Sequence record: ON645936.1
Source: Escherichia phage N2
Length of the DNA stretch: 64,000 bases
Reading direction: 5' to 3' (one strand)
The stretch's first letter is position 1; each line of letters begins with the position of its first letter. Made by a program: the position numbers and the translations under genes. Below the pieces are notes generated by a model. It was given only the letters and a program-made list of their open reading frames with translations, had not been told where the DNA came from and searched no databases. This document shows, piece by piece, positions 4,984-61,680 of the stretch.

Positions 4984-5160
4984 TTATCCTTTAAGTAAGT
5001 CGTAAAATCCACCATTCACATGCTTAGGAGCGGAAACTAACCGAATAGCAATCCGATGACAATCAGGACATACATCAGTATCCCTTTCAGAAATTTTCTT
5101 GATTTTTTCGTATTCTTTTGCACAGTCTTTGGATTGACATTTATAATCATAAAGAGGCAT
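4984..5160 (-). CDS. zinc-ribbon small protein (58 aa, not in ORF track)
   Basis: hand-translated MPLYDYKCQSKDC...CPDCHR; two CxxC pairs. Confidence 0.45.
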   Translation of the reverse strand: MPLYDYKCQSKDCAKEYEKIKKISERDTDVCPDCHRIAIRLVSAPKHVNGGFYDLLKG

Positions 5161-5162
5161 AA

Positions 5163-5582
5163 TTATTCCTTAAAGTGAGCTTTCAACATCTGATACAAAG
5201 ACCATGCTTGTTCATTATTTTCAATAGTAACTTTCATTACCGGGAATTCTGTGAAATCTTCTATTTGTTCTTGCTCTTCCTGCTCTTGTTCTTCAGCAGC
5301 CTGATATGGATTTTCAACTTCATCAAAGAACCCAGCTTCGTTAGTAGAGAGCCAGATAAAGTTTTCATCAAGGATATCACCGCCGGCACAACGTTTGAGT
5401 ACACCTATGGATGTCATAATTTTAGTAGGACGCCCAAGATAATCAGCATCTAAAATTTTAAAAGGCTCCATACCTAAACGTCGTGCATAGATTCCGTTAT
5501 CAGTATGGTCTTTAATAAAATTTTCTTGAGCTTGTTTATTTTTAAATTGATACCATTTATTAACTTCAAATTTAATAGCCAT
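5163..5582 (-). CDS. hypothetical acidic protein
   Basis: 139-aa ORF with [10 protein letters not shown] acidic tract. Confidence 0.5.
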
Positions 5583-10673: not shown

Positions 10674-11420
10674 TTATCCTCGGATAAGTTTAAAAATTGA
10701 ACAATTTAGCGGGTATCCTCTTTTCAGTTTAAGTTTATCAATAAAAGACAAATTTTGATACCGCTCTACACCTTGAATAATTTTATCACACATATCATAT
10801 TGCATTTCTGCTTCTGACAACTTTTTCACGGTTTTCCAATCCGAGCCTTTAAGAAGAACGTTCAGTTTAACAACTTCAGCGCCTTCTGCTATACGAGAAC
10901 CATCAATACGAGCTTTGAGTGCTACAATCGTTAGCTTAACGTCAGAGGTTTGTTTTGATTTAGAAAGCTGAGAAATGTGCTCAATTCGGTTTTCACGTTT
11001 TTTCTGTATAGCTTTAATTTGATTATAAGTCTTTTTGATTTTAGCCCATTTCTTTTCATCTAAATTTAGTTTATGAACTTTTTTCGCAGATGAACGACCA
11101 ATTCGCAAAGCAAATAAATCACGCTTTTCAATCAACTCTTCTAAAGTATAATCAGAACGAAATGTATTATACTTTTTCTTTACTGCAATAACATTCCCTT
11201 TAATGTATCCAACGTTATTATCAAAACGTTCTAATGATAATTTCTCTCCTTCAATACGATTATCAAAAGGTTCTCCCGAGTAAGCGCAAACTTTCTGATC
11301 TAAAATGTTCTTAATGTAATTGAAGTCTAAGTTAAAATCTTTAGAACGTCTTTTAGCAGATGCCTGAGTATGCTCTAGACGACGTTTAATTTTACGAATT
11401 TGATTATTAGTCAGTTTCAT
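10674..11420 (-). CDS. srd: Srd-like basic protein
   Basis: 248 aa, lysine-rich, between dda and modA as in T4. Confidence 0.5.
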   Translation of the reverse strand: MKLTNNQIRKIKRRLEHTQASAKRRSKDFNLDFNYIKNILDQKVCAYSGEPFDNRIEGEKLSLERFDNNVGYIKGNVIAVKKKYNTFRSDYTLEELIEKRDLFALRIGRSSAKKVHKLNLDEKKWAKIKKTYNQIKAIQKKRENRIEHISQLSKSKQTSDVKLTIVALKARIDGSRIAEGAEVVKLNVLLKGSDWKTVKKLSEAEMQYDMCDKIIQGVERYQNLSFIDKLKLKRGYPLNCSIFKLIRG

Positions 11421-11536: not shown

Positions 11537-12139
11537 TTATAGATTAAATCCTTCAAAGTCAAGAGTATAGATAGTGTATGTTGAATACTTTTTATACTCG
11601 TATCTATCCGCAATTCTAAATACACTTCCAGCTGGTATCATTACTTCTTGTTCATCTGAAACTAATTCCATATTACGATAGCGATGACTATCCGGAAACT
11701 TAAAACTTGGACTGTATTCTTTACAGCGTAGAGCTTTTATAGCATACTCCTGGAAATTAAATACCATAGGAGCTTTGAATTCAAAAATAACTTGTGTATT
11801 GTATTCTAATCCAGAAGCAAAATGTAGAGCTATATTTTTATCATATGAAGCTGATACTACTTTATCAAATGTAATAATATCAATTCCTTGATTTAATACC
11901 TGCTTAGTCTCAACTGGAACACCTCTCCAAAGAGGTTTATCGTTTGGAACCAAACGAGATTTGATTATTTCATTTAACCAAGAATGATCGTCTGGCTTAT
12001 TAGTAATACAATGAATTAAAAGTTCAATTTCAGATAAATTAAATCCTTCAGAAAGTAATTCTTCACGAATAGAAGCGCGCACCGATGCATCCATTGATTT
12101 GATTTTAAAATCTTTTAATTGCATTGCTGAATATTTCAT
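11537..12139 (-). CDS. modA: ADP-ribosyltransferase ModA
   Basis: 200 aa; size and position; tandem with paralog. Confidence 0.7.
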   Translation of the reverse strand: MKYSAMQLKDFKIKSMDASVRASIREELLSEGFNLSEIELLIHCITNKPDDHSWLNEIIKSRLVPNDKPLWRGVPVETKQVLNQGIDIITFDKVVSASYDKNIALHFASGLEYNTQVIFEFKAPMVFNFQEYAIKALRCKEYSPSFKFPDSHRYRNMELVSDEQEVMIPAGSVFRIADRYEYKKYSTYTIYTLDFEGFNL

Positions 12140-12759
12140 TCAACTACCTCAATATCATACACTTTAAATGTTCCAAATGAATCGTGTAATTTTTCTTTTG
12201 AAATAGAAGTTATTTTATACTTTCCAATTGGAATCATCCATTCTTGTTCACGCACAATCATCATTAAGTTATCAGTACGTTCTGAATCTAATCCATCAGT
12301 ATCTTCATATGTATACTTAAACTCAGTATTAGGAGAAGAAAGTATAATATCGCTGATATGGTCAGAATAATTAAAAGCTTTATCAGTTTTTAAGCGAAAT
12401 ATTATTTCAGTGAAATACTCAACATAAGAAAAACCACATGCTGTGTGCAAACTAGTAGTAAATGAATCTACTCTATTCGTTGAAAACACTTCTCCAACTT
12501 GTAAATCTTTAATGAGCTCTTTTGTCGATTTTGATATACCACGATATAGCTGATAAGGTGATTCAGTTAAATGCTTTTTAATGATTTTATTTAACTGCCG
12601 ATGAAGAGCTTCATTCTTTTTGGCTTCCATACATTGCCAAAGAACTGACTGCTCAAAGTCAGTAAATTTTTCACAGACTTTTTTATACATATCATATTGA
12701 AAATCAACACTTTCAGCTTTTATAGATAACTGTTCAACATCTGCAAGATTAATAATCAT
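12136..12759 (-). CDS. modB: ADP-ribosyltransferase ModB
   Basis: 207 aa from ATG at 12759 with GGAGG SD; upstream promoter. Confidence 0.7.
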   Translation of the reverse strand: MIINLADVEQLSIKAESVDFQYDMYKKVCEKFTDFEQSVLWQCMEAKKNEALHRQLNKIIKKHLTESPYQLYRGISKSTKELIKDLQVGEVFSTNRVDSFTTSLHTACGFSYVEYFTEIIFRLKTDKAFNYSDHISDIILSSPNTEFKYTYEDTDGLDSERTDNLMMIVREQEWMIPIGKYKITSISKEKLHDSFGTFKVYDIEVVE

Positions 12760-12785
12760 GATAGCCTCCATATACTTCAGAAGCT

Positions 12786-17892: not shown

Positions 17893-18249
17893 TTAACCTC
17901 TATTCATAAAAGCATTAAAAATTTGGTCATCAATAGATGGTGCAGTAATATTTTCTGCATCATTTAGCAAATCATTAATTTCATCAGATAGCATAACACA
18001 TGTACCTTTATTTCCTGTAATTGTTACTGCGCAATTACGAACGTTTTCTTTATTAAATTTTAGGTTAATATTTTCGTAATGAAAATCCTTTAATGCTGAA
18101 TATATTTTTAAAATGAAATTGTCTTTTACTACAATAAACCCAACCTCACTATTAAAACGCGGTTCATGGAAACTGTAATAAACCTTTTCATCTATAAAAT
18201 CGTATGAAATTTTTTCCATTTTTAAATATGAAAATTCAGAACTATACAT
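17893..18249 (-). CDS. hypothetical protein
   Basis: 118-aa ORF. Confidence 0.5.
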   Translation of the reverse strand: MYSSEFSYLKMEKISYDFIDEKVYYSFHEPRFNSEVGFIVVKDNFILKIYSALKDFHYENINLKFNKENVRNCAVTITGNKGTCVMLSDEINDLLNDAENITAPSIDDQIFNAFMNRG

Positions 18250-18261
18250 ATTAACCTCTAA

Positions 18262-18555
18262 TTACTCACCTACCACTTCAGCGATGATATTTTTATTATT
18301 AAAGTTTTTATCGCAATATAGAACATAATTATACTGCATTACACCACCAGACTTAAGCTGTTTTTGCACTTCAGCTTTCATTTCAGGACGATCACGTTCA
18401 ACGATATTCATAATATCCGCTTCAATTTGAGTTTCAACCTCAGTCTGATCCGCAGTCATAGACCATTCGCACAAATCTTTATCATAACCTGCCATAGCAG
18501 GCTGAGCAGCACAAGAAGCTAAAGCAAAAATTGTAGCAAAGATAAATTTTTTCAT
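18262..18555 (-). CDS. sp: periplasmic spackle-like protein
   Basis: 97 aa from internal ATG (MKKFIFATIFALASCAAQPAMA signal peptide); promoter 18585..18614 lies inside the longer track ORF. Confidence 0.65.
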   Translation of the reverse strand: MKKFIFATIFALASCAAQPAMAGYDKDLCEWSMTADQTEVETQIEADIMNIVERDRPEMKAEVQKQLKSGGVMQYNYVLYCDKNFNNKNIIAEVVGE

Positions 18556-39796: not shown

Positions 39797-40123
39797 TTAT
39801 ACCTTAGCAATTTTCAGGTCTGCAAATTTTTTCTTGCGTTGATTTTTCATGCGACGAATAGTTTTATCGGAAATTTCATGCTTTTGATAAGCTTTAGATT
39901 CTACACCAAAAGCTTTAACATCAAATTCTGACAAGATATATTGAACCAACAATTCACGGACAGTATTGCGTCCAATCTTCTGATCATTCTGTTTCATCAT
40001 TTGATGAAGCTCTTTTTCCCATTTATCCAAAATTTGAGGAGTTACAATATCGCCTTTTTCTAGCAAAGAAACTACTTTATCATATGCGTAAGAATTAATG
40101 ACGTTTTTAATTTGAATAGTCAT
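39797..40123 (-). CDS. hypothetical protein
   Basis: 108-aa ORF. Confidence 0.45.
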   Translation of the reverse strand: MTIQIKNVINSYAYDKVVSLLEKGDIVTPQILDKWEKELHQMMKQNDQKIGRNTVRELLVQYILSEFDVKAFGVESKAYQKHEISDKTIRRMKNQRKKKFADLKIAKV

Positions 40124-58841: not shown

Positions 58842-59423
58842 CTAACCGAGCTTTTTAGTTAATTCATTCCAGTGTTTTCTACACAAAGAAACATAAATTT
58901 CATCACCAATACAGATTTGATTACCTTCTTTAACTGGTGTTCCATCTTCCATTAATCGAGCTGTCATAATAGCTTTTTTACCACAATGACAAACTGCTTT
59001 TAGTTCAATAAGTTTATCTGCAATCGCCAAAAGTTCTTTAGAACCTTCAAATAATTTTCCAGCGAAATCAGTCCTTAGACCATAAGCCATAACAGGAACA
59101 TTATATGTATCAACAATTCGGCTTAATTGATGCACCTGTTCAGTTTTTAAAAACTGGGCTTCATCTACAAATACACAATGAATATCTTTTTGTGCTTCAG
59201 CCCATTTATAGAACTCAAAAATATCCATATCATCCGTAATAATATTCGCTTCCTGTTTAATTCCAATGCGAGAAACGACTTCACAGACAGAATCGCGAGT
59301 ATCAATAGCAGGCTTAAGAACTAATACACCCATTCCGCGTTCTTTATAATTATGCGCAGCAGTCAAAAGAGAAGCAGATTTTCCAGCATTCATTGCTGCA
59401 TACGTAAAAATTAAACTCGCCAT
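58842..59423 (-). CDS. tk: thymidine kinase
   Basis: 193 aa; P-loop MNAGKSASLL. Confidence 0.9.
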   Translation of the reverse strand: MASLIFTYAAMNAGKSASLLTAAHNYKERGMGVLVLKPAIDTRDSVCEVVSRIGIKQEANIITDDMDIFEFYKWAEAQKDIHCVFVDEAQFLKTEQVHQLSRIVDTYNVPVMAYGLRTDFAGKLFEGSKELLAIADKLIELKAVCHCGKKAIMTARLMEDGTPVKEGNQICIGDEIYVSLCRKHWNELTKKLG

Positions 59424-59432
59424 ATCACCTTC

Positions 59433-59639
59433 TTAAAGCGTATTCACATAAGCTATTAATTCATTTTCTTTCTTATCAAACCGATCAGCAAATTCTTCCT
59501 GTTGTTCGGGAGATAGCGGGCCGTATTCATCATAAAAGGTGTTTGCTTCTGTATGCTCATCTAGAAGTTCATGGATAAGCTCAAACAATTTATCTTTTTG
59601 TTCTTTACTCAGACTCATAACCATTGCACCTTTAAGCAA
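59433..59639 (-). CDS. hypothetical protein
   Basis: 68-aa acidic ORF. Confidence 0.4.
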   Translation of the reverse strand: MLKGAMVMSLSKEQKDKLFELIHELLDEHTEANTFYDEYGPLSPEQQEEFADRFDKKENELIAYVNTL

Positions 59640-59827
59640 TATTCTTCTACATGCTGTTTACGTTTATTTTTATCTATAAAAGTATATTCAACATATTCAC
59701 CGATATACCATTTATCAGTGTTGTGTTGACTTTTTATAGGACATTTGGTTACTCGAGTTTCGGTCCAGCGTCGAATAATTTCCGCTTTGTTTTTAGGGTC
59801 AAACGGATGCGGGTAATGTGCTTTCAT
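59615..59827 (-). CDS. hypothetical protein
   Basis: 70-aa ORF. Confidence 0.4.
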   Translation of the reverse strand: MKAHYPHPFDPKNKAEIIRRWTETRVTKCPIKSQHNTDKWYIGEYVEYTFIDKNKRKQHVEEYCLKVQWL

Positions 59828-60278
59828 AATCCACCACTATTAAATCAATATCAGGAGTAAACATGTCGATTAATTTAGAAACCTTATCCCAATCGCCGCC
59901 AGCAATACCACAACCTATGCGTGGAATATAAATTACTGGTTTAAACAAAAGGGTCTCTGCCTGTAGATTTAATTCTATCATGCAGTTTACTAAAGCACCA
60001 TAATCAAGATTAGGACCTGGTTCGTATTGCGTATACAGGTTATAGCATATACCAAATCCTGTAGGATTATGTTTAAAAACAATAGACATATCGCCTAATT
60101 TATCACGAGAACCGTACTCAGTAGTGGTTTTATCTATTTCTAAAATTTTAGGATAGGCCCTTGCTAATTGACCTGCTACACCTGAACCCATAGTATGAAA
60201 ACAATTGCACCCGTGCGCAATAATATTACCTTGAAGAAATAGGGCGACAATATCGCCCTTGATATATTTTACAATCAT
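59799..60278 (-). CDS. macro-domain-like protein
   Basis: 159 aa; GDIV...QGNIIAHGCNC...MGSGVAGQL pattern. Confidence 0.5.
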   Translation of the reverse strand: MIVKYIKGDIVALFLQGNIIAHGCNCFHTMGSGVAGQLARAYPKILEIDKTTTEYGSRDKLGDMSIVFKHNPTGFGICYNLYTQYEPGPNLDYGALVNCMIELNLQAETLLFKPVIYIPRIGCGIAGGDWDKVSKLIDMFTPDIDLIVVDYESTLPASV

Positions 60279-60616
60279 CTAGTACTCAATCCTCGATTAT
60301 AAGAATCTACCAAACGGTCAACCATTGAATGACAAGCGGCTTTATCTTTCTCCTCCGCAACTGAACATTCTAAGGTATTCCACTTTTTAGCATATCGTTT
60401 TAATAAAGTATCATTTTTGTATCTGCTTGATTTATCTCTTTCTCCGTCTTTATATGCATATATTAATTTCTGCGCAAATTCAGCTTGGCATGCTTTATTT
60501 TTCCCACAATAATCCGCGGCAGTACGGTTTACATACTCTCTAATTTCAGTGTATGATGTATTTGCTAACACAGAAAATGAAATTAATCCTACACATAAAA
60601 CCAAAATTTTAGTCAT
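60275..60616 (-). CDS. secreted protein
   Basis: 113 aa with N-terminal signal peptide. Confidence 0.45.
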   Translation of the reverse strand: MTKILVLCVGLISFSVLANTSYTEIREYVNRTAADYCGKNKACQAEFAQKLIYAYKDGERDKSSRYKNDTLLKRYAKKWNTLECSVAEEKDKAACHSMVDRLVDSYNRGLSTR

Positions 60617-61154
60617 TTACTATTTCCAACAGTTTATTATTTTTAAGGTAGTTAGCCTTTTCTAGGACTTCAGAAGCATATTTAGAACCTGCTTTAACAT
60701 TCCATCCCGAATTATAAGAGGATATTGCCTTTCTTATATCGCCCTTATGTATATTTAACCAATAAGAAAGTTCAATGTACGCCCAGGAAGCTGAATTGGA
60801 CCGTTTATTCAACATTCTTTTTATTTCGGCATCGGTCATATTATAACCAAGTTCCTTAACTCTTGCTCGCATAGTTGGCAAATAATTTTGGAACATTCCG
60901 TAGGCATGATGCTTTGGTTTAGATTTTAAATTAACTCCGGCAGAGCTTTCTTGCCACAAAATAGCAGCCATTATATGACCCAATCCGCTCTTGTGGATGT
61001 TTTTGTGTGTTTTATATTTTCCATCCTTAGAAAATTGTTCCCCGAATTGATATGCGTAGCGCATGTTATCGAGTTGGACATTACTGAAAGTATGCTCGGA
61101 GCTATGTGCCATCATTGAAATGGCCAATAGACCAGCGAGTAGTGCTTTTCTCAT
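60609..61154 (-). CDS. lytic transglycosylase-like protein with signal peptide
   Basis: 181 aa; ILWQESSAG motif. Confidence 0.5.
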   Translation of the reverse strand: MRKALLAGLLAISMMAHSSEHTFSNVQLDNMRYAYQFGEQFSKDGKYKTHKNIHKSGLGHIMAAILWQESSAGVNLKSKPKHHAYGMFQNYLPTMRARVKELGYNMTDAEIKRMLNKRSNSASWAYIELSYWLNIHKGDIRKAISSYNSGWNVKAGSKYASEVLEKANYLKNNKLLEIVND

Positions 61155-61650: not shown

Positions 61651-61680
61651 ATTATACCACAGTCAAGAGGAAAAGTAAAC
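61651..61680 (-). promoter_or_regulatory. sigma70-type early promoter upstream of regB
   Basis: minus strand GTTTACT-N17-TGgTATAAT. Confidence 0.6.

Follow-up and report, generated by a model that had tools for sequence, protein, structure and literature searches.

The tk.4 locus

The stretch of DNA analysed here (hereafter the window) comprises 64,000 nucleotides from Escherichia phage N2 (ON645936.1) and is a segment of a Tequatrovirus (T4-like) genome. On its minus strand, an ATG-started open reading frame (ORF) at 59799..60278 encodes a protein of 159 amino acids, listed here as a tk.4/adfM-type macrodomain gene. The local gene order is tk, tk.1-like (DUF7438), tk.3-like (DUF7202), the 159-aa ORF, vs, vs.1 (with an SLT domain) and regB. 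Upstream, the stop of vs (ending at 60275) and the start of tk.4 (at 60278) share an ATGA on the minus strand (60275..60278), an overlap that suggests translational coupling. Downstream, the 3′ end of tk.4 overlaps the start of the tk.3-like gene by 29 nt on the same strand (59799..59827, from the ORF coordinates). An identical 29-nt overlap is annotated in phage ZN18, whereas the tk.4/tk.3 overlap of phage T4 is 4 nt.

Upstream of regB, the sigma-70-like site that matches best (TTTACT-17-TATAAT with a TG element; 61651..61679, minus strand, by sequence match) is a candidate start for a co-directional regB-vs.1-vs-tk.4 unit. Between positions 59300 and 62000 we counted 9 sigma-70-like sites against 10.4 expected from shuffles, no excess over chance; because promoter-like sites are no commoner than in shuffled sequence, we only infer the transcription unit. 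Within the 5′ part of tk.4 itself (codons 7–13; 60241–60259, minus strand), an 8-bp GC-rich hairpin (AGGGCGAT-ATT-GTCGCCCT) is followed by a U-rich stretch, and a ‘rho-independent terminator’ is annotated at this spot in phage ECML-123-2; in its 86-nt context, the stability of the hairpin was not significantly above that of shuffles (z = −0.93). Further upstream, the vs.1 homologue (60609–61154, minus strand) matches the lytic transglycosylase SLT domain PF01464 at 23.4 bits, just over the cut-off, and has a hydrophobic N-terminal stretch resembling a signal peptide.

The sequence-only reading had proposed a macro domain from the spacing of three motifs and named a profile search as the check. 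All three are present in the 159-aa ORF at 59799–60278 with that spacing, at residues 8–11 (GDIV), 18–26 (NIIAHGCNC) and 30–38 (MGSGVAGQL), and the profile search returned a match to Pfam Macro (PF01661) at 33.1 bits (E = 5.8e-8), above the gathering cut-off of 22 bits and spanning profile positions 2–117 of 118. The protein also matched PHROG 335 (named ‘phosphatase’; E = 1.6e-71). Relatives were found by tblastn in 2,777 phage records, with phages of Pseudomonas, Vibrio, Acinetobacter and Aeromonas among them, and a protein-cluster search returned 795 proteins. A chance ORF or a pseudogene at 59799..60278 is ruled out by the PF01661 and PHROG 335 matches and the tblastn relatives. Depositors have named the gene ‘phosphatase’, ‘macro domain protein’, ‘Poa1p-like family protein’ or ‘hypothetical protein’, and RefSeq describes T4 tk.4 as ‘phosphatase; contains A1pp phosphatase motif’.

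Orthology with T4 tk.4 and two diverged alleles

The order tk-tk.x-tk.3-[ORF]-vs-vs.1-regB is common to the window, T4 and Yersinia phage ZN18, and the 159-aa ORF therefore corresponds to T4 tk.4. T4 Tk.4 (NP_049723) aligns with the window protein over its full length of 155 aa at 58% identity (E = 1e-70). Judged by gene order and this alignment, the ORF is the orthologue of T4 Tk.4, which is now named AdfM, for anti-DarT factor macrodomain. The two proteins are similar in length, the window protein having four more C-terminal residues, and share all family-invariant residues; the window sequence GCGIAGGDW stands in place of GAGIGKGNW in T4 Tk.4.

The identity is as low as 58% because of a mosaic block. 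MAFFT alignment in 60-nt bins delimits a cassette at 59424..60200, containing the tk.1-like gene, tk.3 and most of tk.4, with about 40–80% nucleotide identity to T4, whereas the flanks (tk on one side, vs-vs.1-regB on the other) are 95–100% identical to T4 in nearly all bins. The left edge of the cassette coincides with the end of tk (59424), and the right edge falls within the first ~30 codons of tk.4 (~60200). In megablast searches, T4, T2 and T6 align to the window tk.4 gene only across its first ~150 nt. The window-type allele is present at 90% identity or more in about 290 deposited records, including RB6, pSs-1, SHFML-26 and the BASEL phage Paracelsus. By these comparisons, Tequatroviruses carry two very different tk.4 alleles.

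On a larger scale, the best long record matches to the 24 kb at 40000–64000 are 94.5–96.6% identical and fall into 7–10 pieces, none reaching 99% identity over most of the stretch, which on sequence comparison appears to be a Tequatrovirus mosaic. At 59614–59619, the window lacks a 367-bp segment that ZN18 and other best-matching phages carry and that holds two small ORFs (ZN18 gp191 and gp192); at this junction, 6 nt are shared by both alignment pieces.

Predicted fold

An AlphaFold2 model of the 159-aa protein, built from an alignment of 39 family members with the T4 sequence left out, has a mean pLDDT of 92.9 and a pTM of 0.88. The predicted fold is of the mixed alpha/beta macro type, and two glycine-rich loops run along the ADP-ribose cleft. 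When the model was searched against the PDB with Foldseek, the top matches were TARG1, Thermus aquaticus DarG, Mycobacterium tuberculosis DarG, Poa1p, BT1257 and SCO6735, all of them macrodomains. The nearest structural neighbours are thus TARG1, DarG, SCO6735 and BT1257, not macrodomains of the MacroD, viral or PARG types. Given the neighbours TARG1, DarG, Poa1p, BT1257 and SCO6735, the protein as modelled is placed in the ALC1/TARG1-like class, as a stand-alone macrodomain. The macro-domain call of the sequence-only reading is therefore borne out by the PF01661 profile, by the AlphaFold model with its Foldseek matches and by the conserved ADP-ribose-binding loops.

A Gln/Asn active-site signature

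The first ADP-ribose-binding loop, placed by the family alignment and hhalign, extends from H22 to A35 (HGCNCFHTMGSGVA; 60174..60215, minus strand) and holds Asn25 and the G31-x-G33 motif. Segment N80–Q84 (NLYTQ; 60027..60041, minus strand), placed by hhalign and by the family profile against M. tuberculosis DarG, TARG1 and SCO6735, ends with Gln84, whose codon, confirmed in the sequence, is 60027–60029. The second glycine-rich loop, which binds phosphate, extends from P119 to W130 (PRIGCGIAGGDW; 59889..59924, minus strand) and was placed by HMMER and hhalign against TARG1, SCO6735 and BT1257.

Conservation was assessed in the Tk.4 family with 120 cluster representatives, 39–97% identical to the query. 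Gln84, N80, Y82, D49, G33 and A35 are invariant (120/120). H22, G23, N25 and C26 are each found in 118 representatives, the remaining two being gapped there; P119 and W130 are each found in 119 of the 120, and G122 and G124 each in 118.

In hhalign and profile alignments, Gln84 is placed opposite the catalytic lysine of DarG (K80) and TARG1 (K84) and opposite the essential Gln85 of SCO6735, and Asn25 aligns with DarG N22 and SCO6735 N27 (hhalign). H22 aligns with H24 of SCO6735 and H23 of Poa1p, and Ala126 occupies the position of the catalytic Asp125 of TARG1 (HMMER and hhalign). Alignment to the family profile thus equates H22-G23-C24-N25 of the window protein with H24-V25-C26-N27 of SCO6735, and N80...Q84 with N81...Q85. 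The DarG sequence used in these alignments is identical to PDB 5M3I, and the one used for TARG1 agrees with its chains in the HMMER alignments; the SCO6735 sequence (5E3B) was taken from the HMMER alignment, and its numbering reproduces V25, N27, L29, K34, Q85, G87 and K89 of PMC9411070. BT1257 also carries Gln at the Gln84 position, both in the profile alignment and in the alignment of a family member; an Asp opposite Gln84 in a single-sequence phmmer pairwise alignment of BT1257 is contradicted by both and was rejected.

One reading of the missing lysine, that the protein is an inactive binder, was largely dropped, as SCO6735 uses the identical Gln/Asn pair catalytically: each of the substitutions Q85A and N27S abolishes the activity of this Streptomyces coelicolor enzyme (PMC9411070). 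Because SCO6735 itself has Gln (Q85) at this position, the absence of the lysine is no argument against a hydrolase. T4-type AdfM presumably uses this SCO6735-type Gln/Asn site, not the lysine of DarG or PhiKZ AdfM. In the literature searched, neither the Gln/Asn site of T4-type AdfM nor the two Tequatrovirus alleles were spelled out.

A probable role against host DarT2

Several published results bear on what the orthologue does. First, in a genome-wide transposon screen of T4 on a DarTG2 host (HIDEN-SEQ, a 2025 preprint; 10.1101/2025.11.20.689424), tk.4 was the single significant hit, and a clean knockout sensitised T4 to DarTG2, for which the gene was renamed adfM; this evidence is genetic, and removal of ADP-ribose from DNA ‘seems likely’ in the authors’ words. 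Second, T4 lacking both adfA and adfN had been found to remain DarTG2-resistant, an observation that had pointed to one more factor (PMC11825919); T-even phages stack several anti-DarT factors, AdfA, AdfN and AdfM. Third, PhiKZ gp104, independently named AdfM, strips DarT2 marks from DNA in vitro (Cell Rep 2026, PMC13309987). Fourth, SCO6735 cleaves ADP-ribosylated thymidine (dT-ADPr) in DNA faster than DarG or TARG1 do, leaves dG-ADPr untouched and rescues Escherichia coli from DarT (PMC9411070). The Tk.4 protein is present in the T2 proteome according to a further preprint, and macro domains occur in 41% of myoviruses (Iyer et al., PMC9503650). In the window, the only match to T4 gp61.2 (AdfA) lies at 17896–18303 on the minus strand (31% identity over 142 aligned positions, E = 2.7e-6), a weak match, so the phage has at that locus either a highly divergent allele of AdfA or another gene.

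By analogy with these systems, the window protein is probably an orphan antitoxin-like enzyme that strips the ADP-ribose placed on phage DNA by host DarT2, a role transferred from the T4 allele. The AdfM-type protein would be made from the co-directional regB-vs.1-vs-tk.4 gene run. Host DarT2 would ADP-ribosylate thymidines in single-stranded phage DNA, at TNTC motifs, and so block replication; the macrodomain would bind the ADP-ribose through its glycine-rich loops G31-S32-G33 and G122-C-G-I-A-G-G128 and hydrolyse the thymine-ribose bond, releasing ADP-ribose, restoring the base and allowing replication to proceed. Catalysis would presumably take the SCO6735 route and not the lysine route of DarG and TARG1: Asn25 would hold Gln84, Gln84 would position the distal ribose, and the chemistry would be done by a water that the residue-23 backbone carbonyl keeps in place.

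In the window itself we observe the ORF with its macro fold, the orthology and shared gene order that tie it to T4 tk.4, and the Gln/Asn signature; the requirement for T4 tk.4 against DarTG2 and the removal of DNA marks by SCO6735 and PhiKZ AdfM are results of others. From the two together we infer that the window allele acts likewise, by hydrolysis. Against this, in the alignments, the lysine of DarG and TARG1, the aspartate of TARG1, and both Lys34 and the Lys89-bearing loop of SCO6735 are all missing, and a bacterial family member, from Pelagimonas, stands alone with no DarT neighbour. Anti-DarTG2 activity, moreover, belongs to the T4 allele, to which the window allele is 58% identical, and with this level of identity and a recombined cassette its specificity could differ.

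A more far-reaching version of this last point is that the Tk.4 family forms a third ALC1-like subclass, of the Gln type like SCO6735 but with the short loop of DarG and TARG1 and lacking the DNA-binding lysines of SCO6735, and that the swapped alleles differ in substrate range. We consider this unlikely. The diverged alleles might, for example, be directed at different DarT2 variants, at uracil-ADPr on RNA or at the marks made by phage Alt and Mod enzymes, and tk.4 would then be a site of arms-race evolution and not an antitoxin with a single purpose.

Alternative substrates

The annotation history of the gene points instead to a small-molecule enzyme, such as an ADP-ribose-1″-phosphate phosphatase, an O-acetyl-ADP-ribose deacetylase, or a protein that degrades or soaks up immune signals derived from ADP-ribose. 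T4 Tk.4 is annotated with an ‘A1pp phosphatase motif’, and ‘phosphatase’ is also the name of PHROG 335; the best matches in both sequence and fold include yeast Poa1p, whose mutated His23 aligns with H22, a residue present in 118/118 ungapped representatives. Many phage macro domains may, moreover, prefer soluble ADP-ribose derivatives (Iyer et al., PMC9503650). However, the similarity to Poa1p lies mainly in the N-terminal half (residues 3–79), the phosphatase label was carried over from a motif match, and this Gln/Asn pair has been shown to work on dT-ADPr DNA (PMC9411070). As a small-molecule activity would also leave the DarTG2-specific phenotype of T4 tk.4 unexplained, we regard this reading as improbable.

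The protein might also protect the phage without repairing its DNA, either by binding DarT2 or its ADP-ribosylated product or by mainly reversing uracil-ADPr on RNA. There is a precedent for the former in AdfA, which counters DarT by binding the toxin (PMC11825919), and for the latter in SCO6735, TARG1 and DarG, all of which cleave uracil-ADPr on RNA as well (PMC13036486); the absence of the classical catalytic lysine from the window protein fits either. Binding to the toxin, however, would have to occur without the C-terminal DarT-binding domain of DarG, as the match to the DarG profile covers positions 2–142 of 338 only, and the strict conservation of Q84, N25 and both glycine loops is as expected of an enzyme. 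Protection without repair is accordingly quite unlikely in our estimation.

Finally, the sequence-only reading had paired the macro protein with ModA and ModB, as a potential reader or eraser encoded alongside the writers of ADP-ribosylation. Both writers are present: modA (11537..12139, minus strand; 200 aa) and modB (12136..12771, minus strand; 211 aa) match PHROG 832, ‘RNA polymerase ADP-ribosylase’, at 4e-33 and 5e-42, respectively. The extent of 11537..12759 given for the pair holds, since an internal modB ATG at 12759 gives a T4-like 207-aa ModB, four codons downstream of the ATG at 12771 (MEAIMIINL...). A 248-aa ORF lies directly downstream of modA on the matching minus strand (10674–11420). 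While the genes stood up to scrutiny, what favours the functional pairing is their co-residence in one genome. In such a pairing, host proteins that Alt, ModA and ModB have decorated with ADP-ribose, or with ADP-ribose-linked RNA, would have these marks removed or bound by the macro protein, and phage-driven ADP-ribosylation would become reversible.

The position and distribution of the genes speak against this. tk.4 and modA/modB are separated by ~47 kb rather than clustered. The macro family is found in 2,777 phage records and ModA/ModB-like proteins in 1,012, and Pseudomonas, Vibrio, Acinetobacter and Aeromonas are absent from the ten commonest Mod organism names, so the macro gene is not tied to Mod. 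Alt, ModA and ModB modify arginine, and cleavage of the arginine linkage is not known for TARG1-class macrodomains. For their part, SCO6735 and TARG1 also de-modify proteins ADP-ribosylated on Glu or Asp (PMC9411070), and the reference list of PMC13036486 includes an arginine-specific macrodomain, Legionella MavL, which would put N-linked protein marks chemically within reach of the fold. But the one phenotype found for T4 tk.4 is on a DarTG2 host (10.1101/2025.11.20.689424), so that its demonstrated role is against a host writer that modifies DNA, and the Gln84/Asn25 signature matches that of SCO6735, which cleaves thymidine-linked ADP-ribose on DNA (PMC9411070). It is very unlikely that the phage’s own ADP-ribosyltransferases supply the substrate; most likely, the 159-aa protein is not an eraser for ModA and ModB.

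Consequences for annotation

The gene, its macro domain (in the T4 RefSeq record) and its anti-DarTG2 role (in the 2025 preprint) are all already known, and tk.4 is a known piece of a current theme in phage–bacterium conflict, the reversal of DNA ADP-ribosylation. Our analysis adds the Gln/Asn site in T4-type AdfM and the two deeply diverged Tequatrovirus alleles, neither of which changes the overall understanding. In practical terms, ‘phosphatase’ and ‘hypothetical protein’ could be replaced by ‘AdfM-type macrodomain, probable thymidine-ADP-ribose DNA glycohydrolase’.

Comparison with known macrodomain systems

DarG gives the best NCBIfam and PADLOC matches of the 159-aa protein. The NCBIfam model NF048014, however, gives 27.8 bits where its equivalog cut-off is 250, over positions 2–142 of 338, and the PADLOC DarG profile is matched at positions 3–144 of 329. 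DarG has a C-terminal DarT-binding domain, whereas the window protein is a bare macrodomain of 159 aa, and the catalytic Lys80 of the DarG macrodomain (5M3I, 5M31/5M3E) is Gln84 in the window protein. There is no darT gene next to tk.4, which is flanked by vs and tk.3. A place in the DarG equivalog family was rejected on the score far under the cut-off, the missing second domain, the missing lysine and the lack of an adjacent darT.

A bacterial member of the Gln-type family, from Pelagimonas phthalicica, is 40% identical to the window protein (5001–5459 of the chromosome piece examined). It is a stand-alone gene with apparently housekeeping-type neighbours, none of them an ADP-ribosyltransferase or DarT gene, and the Tk.4 family is therefore not intrinsically a DarT antitoxin. 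As to an origin from a bacterial DarTG operon, no toxin neighbour was found in this one bacterial homologue examined, a single case that is not conclusive.

Human TARG1 (OARD1), the top Foldseek match, belongs to the same macrodomain class, but its Lys84/Asp125 dyad is replaced by Gln84/Ala126 in the window protein. Yeast Poa1p shares the H-x-C-N-C motif: H22 aligns with its His23 and T29 with its Ser30 (the chain numbering is offset by 3), in an alignment that is significant over residues 3–79 only.

PhiKZ gp104 resembles the window protein in being a phage-encoded stand-alone macrodomain, and it counters DarTG2. It is, however, a true DarG-like enzyme that has kept the lysine (FPTKDNW; N23/K78) where the window protein has Gln84, and the similarity between the two is marginal (BLASTP E = 0.001 over 33 aa; hhalign 96.5%). 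On these alignments, T4-type and PhiKZ AdfM look like separate subclasses of the fold under one name.

The Gln/Asn pair has its counterpart in the Gln-type ALC1-like subclass of SCO6735 (5E3B) and BT1257 (2FG1/2AFC), which are about 26–27% identical to the window protein. This subclass has Gln at the lysine position and a conserved Asn, matched by Q84 and N25. The mobile loop of SCO6735 is five residues longer and carries Lys89 (MKTGS), where the window protein has a five-residue gap; a longer mobile loop has been called characteristic of the subclass (PMC9411070). In addition, Lys34 of SCO6735 is Ser32 in the window protein. Lys34 and the Lys89-bearing loop, the features of SCO6735 that matter for its activity on DNA, are thus absent. 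As aligned, the window protein is SCO6735-like at the catalytic pair without being a typical member of the subclass, and the Tk.4 family combines the catalytic pair of SCO6735 with the loop length of DarG and TARG1.
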